In this document: one piece after another, positions 2,466 through 58,118 of the stretch | How positions within the stretch are numbered: position 1 is the first letter of the stretch | Layout of the letters: each line of letters starts with the position of its first letter | Assembly (NCBI GenBank): GCA_900768545.1 | Contig: CAAGDD010000004.1 | Span: 17,250-81,249, forward strand | Reading direction: 5' to 3' | DNA length: 64,000 nt | Source: Clostridia bacterium | GTDB lineage: Bacteria > Bacillota > Clostridia > Christensenellales > UBA1242 | Position numbers and translations under genes: made by a program | Notes under the pieces: generated by a model | Database searches by the model: none | What the model saw: only the letters and a program-made list of their open reading frames with translations | Told to the model about the DNA's origin: nothing

Positions 2466-2497
2466 TCACAATTATTTGAGTTTACATAAATAAAAAT

Positions 2498-3346
2498 ATG
2501 ATTGAAAAAAAAGAAAATATAAATCTGGCGCAATATTCAACAATGAAAACTGGCGGCATAGGCAAAATTGTGTATTTCCCAAAAACTCATTTGGAAGTTT
2601 TGCAGATTTTGAAGTCTTATGGCGAAGAGAATTGCTTTGTTTTGGGAAATGGCAGCAATGTGCTTTTCCCAGATAAAAACTTTAATAAAATTTTGATTTC
2701 GTTAAAACATTTTAACAAATTTAAAGTTTGTGATAGTGTTGTGATTGTCGGCGCGGGACAAAATTTGTTTAAATTAAACAATCTTTTGTGTCAAAACAAA
2801 TTGAGTGGACTTGAATGGAGTTTTGGCATTCCTGGAACGATCGGCGGACTTGTCTATATGAATGGCGGCAGTTTCGGCAGTGAAATTTGCCAATATGTCA
2901 AAGAAATTTTGGTGGTTGAAGACCAAAAACTTAAATGCATTAAACGTGAAGATATAAATTTTGAATATCGAAGTTCAAATTTAAAAAAAGCCATAATTTT
3001 GCAAATTAAACTTTGTTTGACAAAGTCTAACAAAGAAACGATATTGAAAAATATGACAAATTTTTATAATATCAAAAAAGAAAAACAACCCTGTGATCTT
3101 CCGTCACTTGGGAGTGTTTTTAAAATCAATTTTGACAAAGAAATTGTTTATCCCGCAAAATTGATTGACAATTTGGGGCTCAAAGGTGTTAAAATAGGGG
3201 GAGCAGAGATTTCTCAAAAGCACGCAGGTTTTATTGTCAACTCAAACCACGCGACAAGCAAAGATGTTTTGGATCTTGTCGAGTTAGTCGAGCAAAAAGC
3301 AAAAGAAAATGGCGTGACTTTAAAAAGGGAAATTATCGTTTTGTAG
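2498..3346 (+). CDS. murB: UDP-N-acetylenolpyruvoylglucosamine reductase
   Basis: 282 aa. LAQYSTMKTGG near the N-terminus and the FAD-binding/MurB C-terminal pattern (GGAEISQKHAGFIVN) are present. Confidence 0.85.
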   Translation: MIEKKENINLAQYSTMKTGGIGKIVYFPKTHLEVLQILKSYGEENCFVLGNGSNVLFPDKNFNKILISLKHFNKFKVCDSVVIVGAGQNLFKLNNLLCQNKLSGLEWSFGIPGTIGGLVYMNGGSFGSEICQYVKEILVVEDQKLKCIKREDINFEYRSSNLKKAIILQIKLCLTKSNKETILKNMTNFYNIKKEKQPCDLPSLGSVFKINFDKEIVYPAKLIDNLGLKGVKIGGAEISQKHAGFIVNSNHATSKDVLDLVELVEQKAKENGVTLKREIIVL

Positions 3347-5598: not shown

Positions 5599-8500
5599 TG
5601 GGAGAATTTGTTCATTTGCATGTGCATACCGAATATTCACTTTTGGACGGAATTGCTAGAATAAAAAAACTTGTAGAAATTGAAAAAGAGCGTGGTTCGC
5701 GTGCAGTGGCAATCACTGACCATGGAAACATGTATGGAACTTTGCAATTTTATGAAGAATGTATCAAAGCGGGCATCAAGCCAATTTTGGGCTGCGAATT
5801 TTATATCTGCCATGATCACAACAAAAAGCAAGGAAAAGATGACATAGGTCATATTATTTTGCTCGCAAAAAACGATGTTGGATATCACAATCTTTTAAAA
5901 TTAAACGAAATTGCTTTCTGTGAAGGTTTTTATTACAAACCAAGAATCGATTATGAAGTGCTTGCACAGCATTGTGAAGGTGTTATTTGTCTTTCTGCGT
6001 GCCTTGCTGGACATATTCCAACACTTATCTTGCAAAGACGCTATGACGAGGCAGAAGCCTTAATTTTGCGCCTTAACGAGATGTTTAGAAAAGAAGATTT
6101 TTATCTTGAAATTCAAAATCACGGCATTCCAGAGCAAAAAATCGTAAATCAGTTTTTAGCTCAAATGTCAAAAAAACACAATATCAAAATGGTTGCAACA
6201 AACGACGCGCATTATCTTTATAAAGAAGACGCTGAAATGCAAGACGTTTTGATGTGCGTTCAAATGGGAAAGTTTCTTGACGACCCAGACAGAATGAAAT
6301 TTTCGACAAACGAGTTTTATATCAAAACTTATGACGAAATGAAAGAGGCGATGGCGGGCTATGAAGAAGCGCTTGATACCACACTCGAAATCGCCGACAA
6401 GTGCGATGTAACTATCAAAACAAAATCTTTGGGCGAAATTGCCACTGTTGACGGGAAATACAAACTTCCACCATCAAAAAACTATATTCCAGTTTACAAA
6501 ACAATCACGGGCGAAGAACCTTATGACTTTTTAAGAAGAATCTCTTTTGAAGGACTCCATAAAAAATATAAAGTTGTCACTCAAGAACTTTTGGATCGTC
6601 TTGAAATGGAACTTGAAGTCATCAAAAGCCAAGGCTTTGTCGAATATTTCTTGATCGTATGGGATTATATCAATTACGCCACCGAAGTCGGCATTCCTGT
6701 CGGCCCGGGTCGTGGAAGCGGTGCGGGGAGTTTGGTCGCTTATTGCTCTGGGATCACAAAAGTTGATCCTATGAAGTATAATTTGTTCTTTGAAAGATTT
6801 ATCAATAAAGAAAGAGTTTCGATGCCCGACTTCGACGTCGATTTTTGTATGGATCGTCGTGGAGAAGTTATCGAATATGTAAAACGCCGTTATGGTGCTG
6901 ACCACGTTGCAAGAATTGTAACTTTCGGGTTTATGCAAGCCAAAAACGCGATTCGAGATGTTGCCAGAGTTTTGAAAGTGCCAAACGCAGACGTCGTTAA
7001 ACTTACAAAACTTATTCCAAACAAAGTGCCAGACGAACTTAAAAAACCACCAGTTTTGAAATATTATTTCGGCACAACAGGAAAGCCTGAAAACGAAAAA
7101 TTTATCATTCCAGAACTTCGCGAACTTTATGAAAATGACGATATGATTAGAAAGATCGCTGACATGGCGATCAAACTTGAATGCGTGCCAAGAAACGTAT
7201 CTCAACACGCGTGTGGTGTTTTGATTGCACCAGAACCTGTTGTTGACTTCGTTCCAGTAGCGAGTGTCGATGGTGAGCGTGTAACTCAATATAATATGAT
7301 CGAACTTGAACACATGGGGCTTTTGAAAATGGACTTCTTGGGACTTCGAACCTTGACTGATATTAAAAAAGCCTGCGATTATATTTTGGAAAATCATGGC
7401 GTAAAAATCGACTTTTACAATATGGAATATGATGATCAAAATGTTTATGATCTCATTTCACGCGGCGAAACTGACGCGGTGTTCCAACTTGAAAGTGCAG
7501 GAATGAAAAAGTTTATGAAGGACTTAAAGCCTTCTTGTCTTGACGACATTGTCGCTGGAGTTTCGCTTTATCGTCCGGGTCCTATGGACTTTATTCCAAC
7601 TTTCGTTAAAAACAAACAAGACCCTTCTCAAGTCGTTTATGATGACCCATGTCTAGAACCTATTTTGGACGTTACCTATGGCTGTATCGTTTATCAAGAA
7701 CAAGTTATGAAGATCGTTCAAGTTATGGGCGGATATAGTTTGGGACAAGCCGACAATATTCGTCGTATCATGGGCAAAAAACAAGTCGATAAGATTGAAA
7801 AAGAAAAAGAAAAGTTTGTAAATGGCTGGGAAGATCCAACTGGTCGTGCGAGCATTCCTGGGGCTGTTAAACTTGGTCACAAGAAAGAAATCGCTGAAAA
7901 AATCTTCAATCAAATGAAGGAATTTGCAAAATACGCCTTCAACAAATCGCACGCAGCAGCATATTCTTATGTAACATATCAAACCGCTTATTTGAAGTGT
8001 TATTATGAAACCGAGTTTATCACCGCGATCTTAAACAATCGTATTACAAACGCCGATGATATCAAAAAATATGTGTCGTTTGCCACAGGTGAAGGCATTA
8101 ATGTTTTGCCACCAGATGTAAACAAAAGTTTCTCTGAATTTCATGTTGAAGGAAAGAGCATTCGTTTCGGTCTTGGCGGCTTGAAACATGTCGGCACAGC
8201 AGTTACTGACAACATTGTTAAAGAAAGACAAGAAAACGGCGAATTTAAGTCGTTTGAAGACTTTATTTCAAGAGCAGTAAATATCGGCGTGCAAAAGAAG
8301 GCGATAGAGTGTCTTATTTTGAGCGGTGCGTTTGATGATTTTGGAAAAACTCGTTCTCAATATATGGCTGTTTATGAAAAAGTTTTCGAAAGAGCTGCAA
8401 AAGAGAAAAAGAGCAGCCAACTTGGTCAATATTCGTTCTTTGGCGATATGCAAGTTGAAGATACAGTTGATTATCCAGATATTAAAGAGTTTAACAAAAA

Positions 8501-29140: not shown

Positions 29141-29989
29141 ATGAAAATAGCTATTACTGCTGAAAGTACAATAGATTTGCCAAAAGAATTATTGGAAAAA
29201 TACGATATCAAAACTGTTCCTTTTATGGTTTTGCTTGGAGACAAAGATTTTAAAGATGGAGAAATTACTTCAAAAGAAATTTTCGAATTTGTAGAAAAAA
29301 ACAAAGTTTTGCCAAAAACTTCGGCTGTAAATTCGGAACAATACCACGAATTTTGGACTGAAATTTTGAAGTCTTATGATGCTATCGTTCATGTTACATT
29401 GTCAAGTGAAATGAGCAGTGCTTGGTCGCACGCTGTTGAAACTGCAAGTGAAATGAAAAATGTTTATGTTGTTGATTCAAAATCGCTTTCGACAGGAATT
29501 GCTCTTTTGGCTATCAATGGAAGAAAATATGCCGATCAAGGAATGGAGCCTGCGGATATCGCGAAAAAGCTTGAAGAAAGAGTGCCTTCTGTTCAAGCAA
29601 GTTTTGTTTTGAAAGAATTGAAATATCTTTACAAAGGCGGCAGATGCTCGGCACTTGCTTACTTTGGGGCAAACTTGTTTCAACTTCGTCCACAAATCAT
29701 TGTTAAAGACGGAAAAATGGGAGCTTACAAAAAGTATCGCGGAAATATGGACAAAGTTGTTTCAGCTTATTGTCGTGACACTTTGGCAGAGTTTAACAAT
29801 CCTGATTTGAGCGTGGCTTTTATAACATACACAACAGCCACAGATCAAATGGTCGAAAATGCAAGAGTTGCTTTGAAAGAAAAAGGTTTTAAAGAAATTT
29901 ATGCAACAACAGCTGGAGGCACAATTTCAAGCCATTGCGGAGAAAACACTCTTGGAATTTTGTATATGAATGACGGAGATAAAAATTAG
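29141..29989 (+). CDS. DegV family fatty-acid-binding protein
   Basis: MKIAITAESTIDLP... with the TSAVN and YLYKGGR patterns typical of DegV. GGAGG lies upstream of the ATG at 29141. Confidence 0.85.
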   Translation: MKIAITAESTIDLPKELLEKYDIKTVPFMVLLGDKDFKDGEITSKEIFEFVEKNKVLPKTSAVNSEQYHEFWTEILKSYDAIVHVTLSSEMSSAWSHAVETASEMKNVYVVDSKSLSTGIALLAINGRKYADQGMEPADIAKKLEERVPSVQASFVLKELKYLYKGGRCSALAYFGANLFQLRPQIIVKDGKMGAYKKYRGNMDKVVSAYCRDTLAEFNNPDLSVAFITYTTATDQMVENARVALKEKGFKEIYATTAGGTISSHCGENTLGILYMNDGDKN

Positions 29990-30017
29990 TCGTGCGTTTG
30001 CATGACTTTTTTTATGC
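29990..30017 (+). terminator. Intrinsic terminator after degV-family gene
   Basis: GTCGTGC-GTT-TGCATGAC hairpin (one G-U pair) followed by TTTTTTT. Confidence 0.65.
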
Positions 30018-37426: not shown

Positions 37427-37763
37427 AAGAGGAGAGATATATTTTGCCGACCTTAGTCCTGTTGTTGGGAGTGAGCAAGGTGGAATTCGCCCTGTTTTAA
37501 TCATTCAAAACGATGTTGGAAACAAATATTCGCCGACAGTGATAGTGTCGGCGATAACAAGCCAACTTTCAAAAGCAAAACTCCCGACTCATATCGAACT
37601 TTCGTCAGCACTTTATCATCTTCCAAAAAATTCGGTTGTTTTGTTGGAGCAAATTCGCACGCTCGACAAACGTCGTCTTAAAGAAAAAATCACTTGCGTT
37701 GACGACACAAAAATGCGAGAAATCAATCGAGCAATCTTAATTTCGCTGGGGTTTGTCAATTAA
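37410..37763 (+). CDS. mazF: Endoribonuclease toxin MazF/EndoA (PemK family)
   Basis: [30 protein letters not shown]...KLPTHIEL...[10 protein letters not shown] is near-collinear with B. subtilis NdoA. Confidence 0.9.
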
Positions 37764-50112: not shown

Positions 50113-50925
50113 ATGATCGACAGAGATGGCATTGAAAGACCAGACAGATTTGACCAACACATGCGACCTATTTCTCATGACAAAAGAAAGGTCAAGTTTG
50201 ACGAAAATTATAGTTTTAGACCACGCAACATTTTCTTTAGAATGTGGGCGGTCTTTTTTCGTGCCTTTGTTATCTGTGTGTTGAATCCTATTTTTTATTT
50301 TAAATATGGAATGAAAGTATATGGAAAGCAAAACATTAAAAAACTTCGCAAAAAAGGCTTTATCATCACTTGCAATCACGTTTTTATTTTTGACGACCTT
50401 GGCATTGGAGTAAATGTTTTCCCTTTTAGAAAAATTTACTTCGGGGCGCTTGATCGAAGTGTTAAAAGGCCTTGCGTTGGATTTTATTTGCGTTCGCTTG
50501 GCGGAATTCCTATTCCAAGAGAAAGTTTGTCTGGAATGAAAAAGTTTAACGAAGATGTTGGATATCTTTTGAAGAAAAACAAACCTGTTTTGATTGATCC
50601 GGAAGGTTCACTTTGGCCATATTATCGTGACATTCGTCCTTTCAAACGCGGAGCATTTTCACTCGCAGTGAAAAACGATGTGCCAGTTTTGCCAATGGTG
50701 GTTACTTTTAAAAGAAAAAGAAAGCGCAATGGCGAACTCAAACGCAGAAAAAACGGAAGTTATGTTTACAAAGTTTTCTACACTGCTTGTGAACCTATTT
50801 ATGCAGATAAATCGATTGAAGATGAAAGATCTCGAATTGAAGACTTGCTCAAAAAGACTTATGATGTGACTGAAAAAACAGCAAGAGAATTTTATGAAAG
50901 TCAAGATTGCGGATTTGACAACTAG
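50113..50925 (+). CDS. Lysophospholipid (1-acylglycerol-3-phosphate-type) acyltransferase
   Basis: NHVFIFDD (NHxxxxD) and PEGS motifs of the PlsC family. It follows the MarR gene. Confidence 0.7.
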   Translation: MIDRDGIERPDRFDQHMRPISHDKRKVKFDENYSFRPRNIFFRMWAVFFRAFVICVLNPIFYFKYGMKVYGKQNIKKLRKKGFIITCNHVFIFDDLGIGVNVFPFRKIYFGALDRSVKRPCVGFYLRSLGGIPIPRESLSGMKKFNEDVGYLLKKNKPVLIDPEGSLWPYYRDIRPFKRGAFSLAVKNDVPVLPMVVTFKRKRKRNGELKRRKNGSYVYKVFYTACEPIYADKSIEDERSRIEDLLKKTYDVTEKTAREFYESQDCGFDN

Positions 50926-51054
50926 GGGCGAAAAGCCATCGCGAAGCGATGAGCCTTGAAGCGAAAAAAATGAAGTCGAAAGACCTCATTTTTTTTGTTG
51001 CTTCAAGGCCATTATAATTTTGCGCTTCCCACAAAATTATAAGCTTTTCGCCCC
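50925..51054 (+). repeat. GC-rich cloverleaf-like intergenic element, copy C
   Basis: Perfect 12-bp closing stem GGGGCGAAAAGC/GCTTTTCGCCCC. H1 CATCGC-gaa-GCGATG. H2 GCCTTGAAGC.../...GCTTCAAGGC with an inner AAAAAAATGA/TCATTTTTTT helix and a GTC-gaaa-GAC tip. H3 TTATAATTTTG/CAAAATTATAA. Confidence 0.75.
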
Positions 51055-57560: not shown

Positions 57561-57577
57561 ATCACAAACTTTTTAAA

Positions 57578-57604
57578 AGGTGCACTTTGGTGCATCTTTT
57601 TTTT
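57578..57604 (+). terminator. Intrinsic terminator after ppdK
   Basis: AGGTGCAC-tttg-GTGCATCT followed by a T run. Confidence 0.7.
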
Positions 57605-57707
57605 GTCTTTTTAAGGCGTGGGGTGAAGTTTGAAAAAAAAGTGTAATGAAAAAAATGAGAGAGAAATATGAGAAGTGAAAAAGTGGCGGAAATGGTCAAA
57701 AATGAGC

Positions 57708-57841
57708 GGGCGACGGAAAAGCAAATCGAAAGATTTGCTTTTTTGTTGCAAAAGGCGACAAGGTGCTGGAGTTTTTGTGAGCCGTTTTACGCCTTTTGCA
57801 ACGCTGCCGCGCCGCAGGCTTTGCCGCGGCAGCCGTCGCCC
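57708..57841 (-). repeat. GC-rich cloverleaf-like intergenic element, copy D
   Basis: Closing stem GGGCGACGG/CCGTCGCCC. Plus-strand hairpins are AAAAGCAAATC-gaaa-GATTTGCTTTT, GTTGCAAAAGGCG...CGCCTTTTGCAAC and GCTGCCGCG...CGCGGCAGC. Confidence 0.7.
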
Positions 57842-57893
57842 CGTCCGCACAGCACACTCCAATATCGCATCGCCCACGCACTCACTCAATTTT

Positions 57894-58118
57894 TTATTCC
57901 AACACAACATTTCCGCACATAACATCAAAATAAGAAAAAGTTTGAAGTTTGTCATCGGCAGTCTTGATTGTGAAAACACTTGGATACACATCTTTAATAG
58001 TTGCGGTCAAGTTTTCAATTCGTTTTCGTCCACGATTTATTTTCATTTGAATGTCTTGCCCTTTGAGCATAGTTATTTTCGATTTAATTTCGTCCAAGCC
58101 ATATATAATTTTTCTCAT
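57894..58118 (-). CDS. veg: Veg family protein
   Basis: 74 aa. LDEIKSKITMLKGQDIQMKINRGRKRIENLTATIKDVYPSVFTI is collinear with B. subtilis Veg. An AAGGAGA SD is present. Confidence 0.8.
   Translation of the reverse strand: MRKIIYGLDEIKSKITMLKGQDIQMKINRGRKRIENLTATIKDVYPSVFTIKTADDKLQTFSYFDVMCGNVVLE

Follow-up and report, generated by a model that had tools for sequence, protein, structure and literature searches.

We analysed a 64,000-nt stretch of contig CAAGDD010000004.1 from a Clostridia bacterium (the window) for a group of palindromic intergenic elements, A to E, starting from element C. The window is housekeeping chromosome of a sporulating gut Clostridia, with ribosomal operon genes, dnaE, T-box-tyrS, spoIIR and sipL; the organism is common in human-gut assemblies, and its relatives include metagenome-assembled genomes named Ca. 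Caccovivens. Element C lies between convergent acyltransferase and HlyIII genes. It starts with the G that completes the acyltransferase TAG stop (50923-50925) and occupies 130 of the 133 nt of the gap up to the HlyIII stop (51059), in agreement with the original prediction made from the sequence alone; its 3' end falls 4 nt short of that stop. Element C has the following parts, with no strand assigned; L050 is the orthologous locus of a sister species.

50925..51054: element C, a compound palindrome of a 12-bp closing stem (P1) and three hairpins (H1-H3) in the acyltransferase/hlyIII gap (fold z score, descriptor match, source of covariance model R1)
50925..50936: P1 5' arm, GGGGCGAAAAGC, a terminus common to A and B and kept in the sister-species orthologue (identity 0.83 to L050 versus 0.52 in shuffles)
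51043..51054: P1 3' arm, GCTTTTCGCCCC (fold, L050 comparison)
50937..50951: H1, CATCGC-GAA-GCGATG, with a C(GAA)G triloop; unrelated to the L050 H1 (identity 0.42, shuffle level)
50953..51009: H2, the long middle arm, whose outer stem GCCTTGAAGC/GCTTCAAGGC is not kept in the L050 orthologue (fold, L050 comparison)
50964..50996: inner H2, A7-TGAAGTC-GAAA-GACCTCA-T8, a hairpin like a bidirectional intrinsic terminator (L050 identity 0.79, flipped)
51012..51042: H3, TTATAATTTTG...CAAAATTATAA (fold); an A-to-G change in strain L047 lengthens its stem

The structure stands as first drawn: GGGGCGAAAAGC and GCTTTTCGCCCC pair perfectly over 12 bp, and folding returned H1, H2 and H3 at the positions originally given, around a junction with 0-2 unpaired bases. 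With RNA parameters the minimum free energy of element C is -66.5 kcal/mol on the + strand (z -10.4) and -73.5 on the - strand (z -12.1); with DNA parameters it is -46.9 (z -12.2).

A sliding-fold scan of the window ranked element C and four other elements as its top five local folds. The other four, likewise without assigned strand, are:

30022..30151: element A, closing stem GG(G)CGAAAAAC/GTTTTTCGCC(C) and three hairpins, between the degV terminator and a 38-aa open reading frame (ORF) (descriptor; model from C, E-value 1.6e-3)
31463..31579: element B, closing stem GGGGCGAAAAG/CTTTTCGCCCC and three hairpins (descriptor; model from C, E-value 7e-6)
36973..37081: element D, closing stem GTGCCAAGAAATT/AATTTCTTGGCAC and three hairpins, straight after the acpS stop (36958) (descriptor, fold)
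57708..57841: element E, closing stem GGGCGACGG/CCGTCGCCC and three hairpins, between ppdK and a sipL-like gene (descriptor; model from C, E-value 2.3e-3)

To describe the architecture we used a perfect closing stem of at least 7-8 bp, with arms 50-220 nt apart, enclosing a well-paired multiloop. This descriptor matched exactly A to E in the window, all of them with three branches even when two were allowed; it gave 0 matches in 30 block-wise dinucleotide shuffles of the window and none in about 200 kb from sister species. The units are about 109-135 nt long and have four helices. Their closing stems are perfect inverted repeats of 9-13 bp. As single strands the elements fold into a near-perfect four-way junction, in which 0-3 bases stay unpaired where the stem and the three hairpins meet. 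As an explanation, chance or an assembly artefact has a negligible claim: palindromes can confuse assemblers, and nothing more speaks for it, while the empty shuffles refute it, as does the recurrence of these elements at these positions in numerous assemblies made independently by different studies.

As originally predicted, A and B share the termini of C (GGGGCGAAAA...TTTTCGCC) and have unrelated interiors. The terminus of E, GGGCGACGG, is related to that of A, B and C, and the closing stem of D is unrelated. No interior 10-mers are common to different copies, and reuse of interior sequence elsewhere in the window is at chance level. Across the roughly 84 kb of source-genome DNA examined (the window plus 10 kb on each side), interior repeats were absent and the 10 kb beyond each window edge held no further copies, leaving five copies, all inside 28 kb, with only termini in common. 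Two of the first descriptive claims needed amending. The elements had been called visibly GC-rich, which is right for A, B and E (0.53-0.56) and only modestly so for C (0.43 versus 0.36 for the window), and the statement that a short GC-rich hairpin comes first in all five copies fails for E read in the sense of ppdK. The elements form a real, non-random family defined by architecture rather than sequence.

A covariance model (R1) built from C alone, using the window copy and one conspecific copy, recovered most of this family. Full-length matches were the L050 orthologue (E-value 1e-9), B (7e-6), an element of Ca. Neochristensenella, a second Clostridia lineage described below (1e-3), A (1.6e-3) and E (2.3e-3); D was missed, and five element-free loci from relatives gave no match. 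A MAFFT alignment of orthologues was not structurally meaningful for H1 and H3, and we used per-segment identity and the model-fitted alignment instead. In the latter, 95.5% of cells are paired versus 44-50% when partners are slid, and both sides have changed in 46 of 53 pairs (143 cells changed on both sides versus 7 on one). Because this alignment is fitted to the model and mixes paralogues, its pairing statistics show a common architecture and not function.

All five elements are at gene 3' ends, and intrinsic terminators lie close by at several of them. Element B separates the GGGtGRT stop codon from the yjzC start, the two genes being encoded on the - strand. The gene upstream of D is acpS (36608-36958, + strand; ACPS domain, conspecific annotations), while the longest-ORF pick there, 36785-37063 (92 aa), runs into D. 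The terminator signals are:

29988..30014, + strand: canonical intrinsic terminator of degV (hairpin 29988-30007 followed by T7), just upstream of A (sequence and fold)
57575..57610, + strand: canonical intrinsic terminator of ppdK (11-bp hairpin 57575-57600, then a T run), lying some 100 nt before E (sequence and fold)
37082..37087, + strand: T6 directly after the D closing stem; D and the T run together read as a branched acpS terminator (sequence)

A U/T run after a GC-rich hairpin is thus present for D (T6) and for the inner H2 of C (T8), and absent for A, B and E. Besides that inner H2 hairpin, site C has no terminator signal. The elements are placed in or beside intrinsic terminators at gene 3' ends. 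It had been argued that C is not a simple terminator since no U run follows it; the closing stem of C is indeed followed by none, but a terminator-like hairpin is enclosed within C, and D, with a T run after it, looks like a terminator that has been remodelled.

Spurious ORFs of 40-126 aa run through E (57611-57991, - strand) and C (50849-51034, - strand), as also at L047 2829-2951, and one such element-spanning ORF is annotated as a gene in a public assembly.

The position at gene 3' ends invites a reading as functional RNA, in which selection on RNA structure would maintain the elements as four-way-junction transcripts, either in 3' untranslated regions (3'-UTRs) or between cistrons, where they would stop 3'-5' exonucleases or RNase attack or serve as insulators or branched terminators, or as independent small RNAs. 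Consistent with this, C and D are the sole terminator-like signals at their sites, the pairing statistics are strong, and GAA and GAAA loops predominate on the gene-sense strand. A and E, however, follow complete terminators and would be transcribed only by read-through.

Comparison between species shows that element presence is lineage-specific. Four relatives with a TtcA identity of 80-89% lack A, B and D at the corresponding sites (L084, L086, L088 and L089 for A). At site A the relatives have the terminator and then directly the small ORF, at site B a plain terminator (e.g. L084), and at site D a simple terminator hairpin with a T run. The site-D terminator stem of L086 (GTGCTAAGTAAAG...) resembles the closing stem of D (GTGCCAAGAAATT...) at 9 of 13 positions, a likeness that is suggestive only of D being a terminator whose apex was replaced by three hairpins.

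The small ORF next to A (30188-30304, + strand) is unannotated, encodes 38 aa (MKKRKNKKQFESKNDPLGSYTGTALVGDEMPVQDADDL) and lies between degV and the ttcA-like gene. It is kept in four related species (core DPLGxYTG...QDADDL) and is likely, from this conservation, to be a real small protein gene. Just downstream of D is a mazE-like/mazF (PemK) toxin-antitoxin pair (37178-37763, + strand), whose promoter/operator region (about 37120-37175) is kept across species, although D is not.

Site C, one of the small number of orthologous series compared, was seen in three states. A relative with a 66% identical acyltransferase (L053) has only a 26-nt simple bidirectional terminator there, while L050 (79% acyltransferase identity) carries a complete four-way element. 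Relative to the window copy, identity in L050 is 0.83 for P1 and 0.79 for the inner H2, compared with 0.70 for adjacent coding DNA, whereas H1 and the outer H2 score no better than shuffles (0.42-0.46), with H3 borderline. The inner H2 hairpin of L050 is in reverse-complement orientation relative to the window. The site-C architecture is therefore kept across species though H1 and the outer H2 are randomised, which favours selection on RNA structure; that close relatives carry the same genes without elements speaks against it. When metagenomes were scanned with an acyltransferase profile, the only matches were 9 distant loci, none of which has an element.

Within the species, all copies examined are fixed. 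Each conspecific contig checked at sites A, B and D (8-10 per site) carries the element, with scattered single-nucleotide polymorphisms only, and C is present in all 4 contigs retrieved for its site and E in the 1 retrieved for its own; no presence/absence polymorphism was seen for A-E among 2-11 conspecific sequences per site. Segregating sites amount to 3.2% in stems, 7.5% in loops and 0.9% in flanking intergenic DNA. When E is left out, with its long flank and only two sequences, the figures are about 4.1%, 9.8% and 2.1%. Since the elements have more segregating sites than their flanks, they are under no stronger sequence constraint than the neighbouring DNA. Stems are less polymorphic than loops (p = 0.04), in keeping with a functional RNA; the polymorphism of whole elements above that of flanking intergenic DNA is not.

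A length polymorphism beside B was considered as an element insertion and rejected, because it is a tandem duplication of the GGGtGRT gene 3' end. The GGGtGRT-yjzC gap measures 221, 372 or 528 nt by strain (window 31580-31650; L066-L073 about 2470-3000), corresponding to 1-3 tandem copies of a unit of about 151 nt that includes the GGGtGRT coding 3' end and also holds a hairpin, CCAAACTGC...GCGGTTTGG, adjoining element B.

The same distribution bears on a role in chromosome architecture, in which cruciform extrusion or the binding of gyrase, HU or junction proteins would absorb supercoiling at gene ends, as proposed for bacterial interspersed mosaic elements (BIMEs). The location at gene 3' ends, including between convergent genes, the near-perfect four-way junction and the conserved P1 sequence would suit such sites. 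We nonetheless regard this role as very improbable: there are only five copies in 84 kb, all within 28 kb, close relatives do without them, and their polymorphism exceeds that of the flanks.

Analogues elsewhere came from a scan of 185,579 genomes, one per species, for the termini at the right spacing, which yielded 46 loci in many phyla. The only true analogue among them is in Ca. Neochristensenella gallicola (L014), where a 2.1-kb contig holds two stem-plus-three-hairpin elements, the outer stem of one being GGGGCGAAAAGGG. Neochristensenella elements are denser than those in the window, and paralogues have hairpin modules in common. One locus (L094) is 34% intergenic, and all 20 of its 20 long perfect hairpins (8-28-bp stems) are intergenic; they include a 201-nt element (5897-6097, -197 kcal/mol) in which one four-way junction is nested in the middle arm of another. 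A 155-nt element at L095 3662-3816 has a 38-bp closing stem with flanking A and T runs. Neochristensenella contigs break at the elements.

These loci also show how the hairpins change. At the recF site of L014 and L094 (recF protein 87% identical) the inner closing stem is kept, and all hairpins are extended or altered symmetrically on both arms, at apex and base, as in GGCAGGCG-GTA-CGCCTGCC versus GGTCAGGCGGGGG-TTT-CCCCCGCCTGACC. In two strains that are 99% identical, a hairpin with a 28-bp stem (L094 7880-7938, L096 4009-4067) has its 3-nt loop flipped, AAA versus TTT. The same two loci differ by a 2,118-bp block with ABC transporter genes and a TetR-family gene (L094 8116-10233, absent in L096), one breakpoint of which is inside another long hairpin.

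Several properties of the elements speak to the level, DNA or RNA, at which they are maintained. G-U pairs make up about 2% of element pairs versus 11.8% in shuffles, both strands fold about equally, and the same folds are obtained with DNA parameters. Among 41 hairpin loops, 23 are triloops, 12 of those being GNA closed by C:G. C(GNA)G triloops are a hyperstable class of single-stranded DNA mini-hairpin, e.g. d(GCGAAGC). Template switching in replication can create and maintain perfect hairpins, with multibase compensatory change, stem extension and loop inversion as its signatures (PMC8794818). Changes of this type are the inner H2 flip between the window and L050, the AAA/TTT loop flip, the symmetric recF-site extensions and matched indels. 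The scarcity of G-U pairs, the equality of strands, the symmetric two-arm changes and the loop flips thus favour DNA-level palindromes over an evolved RNA.

We therefore consider a functional RNA unlikely as the general explanation. The paucity of G-U pairs and the two-strand folding count against it, loop flips and matched two-arm indels are hard to obtain by selection on point mutations, and loop and junction nucleotides are not conserved. The original prediction had offered either a transcribed 3'-UTR structure or a structured mobile repeat. The second is the closer: the elements form a family that Rfam does not know and a model can recover, and any mobility is putative; the first is weakened by the complete terminators before A and E, the lack of G-U pairs, the folding of both strands and the symmetric changes.

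Searches against known families returned little. The original prediction had recognised no named RNA family, and an Rfam scan of both strands of the whole window likewise gave no match on the five elements: at the gathering score and at E-values up to 10, the elements drew nothing except a chance microRNA-precursor match in B (26 bits versus a gathering score of 66). Plasmid, phage and viral-contig collections held no match to the elements, and literature string searches on the termini found only vector and rRNA-primer sequences. The T-box leader before tyrS (33430-33645, + strand) scores 83.2 bits versus an Rfam gathering score of 93, so that a default scan misses it.

The termini raise the prospect of an enzyme-mobilised, non-autonomous unit resembling repetitive extragenic palindromes (REPs), REPINs or miniature inverted-repeat transposable elements (MITEs). 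Its ends (GGGGCGAAAAG/CTTTTCGCCCC) would be recognised as folded single-stranded DNA by an enzyme encoded elsewhere, such as a REP-associated tyrosine transposase (RAYT) or other IS200-type HUH transposase, a junction-specific recombinase or a resolvase, and the interiors would differ because there are many subfamilies or because cargo hairpins are shuffled. Inverted termini of 10-12 nt are common to A, B and C and related in E and L050, with the motif in one Neochristensenella element. A was gained at a site empty in four relatives, the shared modules and contig breaks in Neochristensenella point the same way, and GNA triloops suit recognition of single-stranded DNA hairpins.

The remaining loci of the genome scan touch on the same possibility. 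Most of the 46 are a different object, a short palindrome GTAG-GGGCGAAA(A/G)AT(T/C)TTTCGCCC-CTAC that is arranged as tandem repeats of 16 nt, as inverted pairs or as arrays and occurs in Bacteroidota, Cyanobacteria, Desulfobacterota, Chloroflexota, Planctomycetota and others; examples (of L001-L046, terminal-pattern scan) are L005 149-280, L008 1881-2002, L035 7040-7160 and L015 425-542. This cross-phylum palindrome looks like a very widely distributed GTAG-tagged REP class. Its core is common with the window closing stem, which we take as a lead rather than as membership. The core GTAG-GGGCGAAAAATTTTTCGCCC-CTAC occurs as REP-like units in many phyla, and GTAG-tagged REPs have been catalogued and linked to RAYTs (PMC3733652).

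Against mobilisation by an enzyme, the 62 ORFs of the window, the 10 kb on either side of it and the fetched flanks yielded no transposase, RAYT or recombinase. No direct repeats that could be target-site duplications (TSDs) adjoin any of the five copies, and the window copies have no GTAG tag nor any other consistent one, the bases before GGGCG being GTGG (A), CTTG (B), CTAG (C) and GAGC (E). The lack of presence/absence polymorphism, the interiors unrepeated within 84 kb and the absence of the common terminus from D also argue against it. The cross-phylum palindromes have no recurrent neighbouring gene or protein, as ORF clustering gave only spurious ORFs through the repeats. Taken together, this leaves an enzyme-mobilised unit improbable, to about the same degree as a functional RNA. 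The common termini still point to a sequence-specific step in the origin of the copies, no enzyme for which was found in the sequence examined, and any GGGGCGAAAA-loop-TTTTCGCCCC hairpins left unoccupied would be candidates for target sites or precursors.

The explanation that we favour, and to which we give about an even chance, is a lineage-specific family of DNA-level compound palindromes that sit in terminator hairpins or in the dead space behind them, with arms perfected and remodelled by hairpin-templated replication errors. Such elements lodge in or beside terminators at gene 3' ends, where self-folding arms would leave gene expression undisturbed. D would be a terminator stem whose apex bears three hairpins; C encloses a bidirectional terminator, and A and E lie just behind complete terminators. 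Complementarity of the arms would be kept, and the arms remodelled, by hairpin-templated errors and repair (template switching, or quasi-palindrome correction), not by RNA selection, so that the sequence of the arms would change while the architecture, the termini and the cores of terminators stay. Because the arms fold on themselves, the closing stem of a terminator would stay functional and the element would be tolerated; we infer both this tolerance and the role of template switching. If transcribed, the elements would only add to termination, insulation or 3'-end protection, as REP/BIME sequences do in E. coli.

Several observations weigh against this explanation. Template switching leaves unexplained both the regular stem-plus-three-hairpin architecture and the 10-nt terminus of A, which is the same as in B and C, and these two gaps keep the functional-RNA and enzyme-mobilised alternatives alive. 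P1 and the inner H2 are conserved between species at least as well as coding DNA, which implies either a constraint on the sequence itself or a recognition site. On the strand read there are 12 GNA loops and 2 of their complements, a bias that could also reflect GNRA-like or GNA loops of an RNA. The homology of the D and L086 stems is supported by 9 of 13 positions, and copies with the same interior may exist elsewhere in the genome, beyond the 84 kb or so that was sampled. As to the architecture, we speculate that a fully paired four-way junction, unlike a three-way junction, needs no unpaired linkers, a possible reason for three hairpins.

A related possibility, which we hold at clearly lower probability than DNA-level palindromes kept by replication errors and slightly above a functional RNA, is that the elements are a previously undescribed selfish DNA defined by shape: self-similar, nestable four-way-junction palindromes that colonise terminator hairpins as a bacterial counterpart of mitochondrial GC clusters. 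They might spread and diversify via single-stranded DNA, with template switching as the sole mechanism or with the help of an enzyme specific for the junction together with the GGGGCGAAAAG terminus.

If the favoured explanation is correct, some gut Clostridia carry a repeat family invisible to sequence-based repeat finders, since its conservation is limited to the fold and about 10 terminal bases. The elements would then add to the intergenic share of the DNA (34% of one Neochristensenella locus), interrupt assemblies, seed spurious ORFs and remodel terminators, and they would offer a natural test bed for template switching as the maker or keeper of perfect hairpins. They also bear on covariation as evidence for functional RNA, the statistics here being excellent though the elements behave like DNA palindromes. 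The terminus in common with GTAG palindromes of many phyla hints at a widely distributed recognition system.

Compared with known systems, the elements fit the broad kind of palindromic intergenic repeats and lack the defining features of REPs, MITEs, attC sites and any Rfam family. Retron non-coding RNAs, small ribozymes, tRNA-like elements, invertons and attC were rejected on anatomy. Integron attC sites are similarly defined by a folded single strand, with conserved termini, a variable interior and a similar length range; they are, however, single bulged hairpins with RYYYAAC/GTTRRRY core sites by gene cassettes, whereas the present elements have the termini GGGGCGAAAAG/CTTTTCGCCCC, no R''/R' core sites, a four-way fold and housekeeping neighbours. 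The T/Y-shaped terminal palindromes of parvoviruses (inverted terminal repeats, ITRs, of adeno-associated virus) and the multi-palindrome telomeres of Streptomyces also combine a GC-rich closing stem with small internal hairpins, their internal arms invert between flip and flop, and GNA-type loops stabilise their single-stranded DNA folds. These are ends of linear replicons that prime replication, whereas our elements are internal, chromosomal, multi-copy and four-way rather than three-way.

Intrinsic (bidirectional) terminators resemble the elements in the stem and T6 of D, at a site where relatives have a plain terminator, in the A7-hairpin-T8 of the inner H2 of C, and in the A and T runs that flank Neochristensenella elements. 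A terminator is a single short hairpin, however, while D adds three apex hairpins, C wraps the terminator in stems, and A, B and E have no U run. MITEs such as Correia/NEMIS, ERIC, RUP and BOX are likewise about 100-150 bp long, lineage-specific and intergenic, with terminal inverted repeats and strong folds. Their copies are alike in sequence, usually have TSDs and match insertion sequence (IS) ends, and the regular arrangement of a stem with three hairpins is foreign to MITEs; our elements have terminal inverted repeats and show, in the window and the conspecific contigs examined, no TSDs, sequence-similar IS-related copies or insertion polymorphism.

REP, BIME and REPIN sequences come closer. 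Both they and the elements are extragenic, GC-rich and palindromic and lie at gene 3' ends or between convergent genes (PMC3733652, PMC2817692), both are thought to act or propagate as folded single strands, and the terminal core GGGCGAAA...TTTCGCCC is identical to that of GTAG-tagged palindromes. REPs, found in E. coli, Pseudomonas and others, are nevertheless sequence-conserved single imperfect hairpins of 20-40 bp with a GTAG/CGTC tag and hundreds of copies. The elements are instead four-helix, four-arm units of about 109-135 nt whose interiors are unrelated and which bear no GTAG/CGTC tag; the DNA sampled held few of them and showed no RAYT, and we rejected membership in REP/REPIN.

Mitochondrial GC clusters and the double-hairpin and repetitive hairpin-forming elements of yeast, Allomyces and sponges (PMC4478555, PMC2800124) differ in being organellar sequence families, mostly of single or double hairpins of 30-60 nt, for which a four-way-junction architecture or an association with terminators is not described. 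They too are GC-rich palindromic modules in AT-richer intergenic DNA that diversify fast, merge, nest and shuffle with no transposase of their own, which parallels the nested, modular Neochristensenella elements as an analogy only, with no homology. The elements look like a bacterial relative of REP elements and mitochondrial GC clusters, not previously described, rather than a functional RNA gene.

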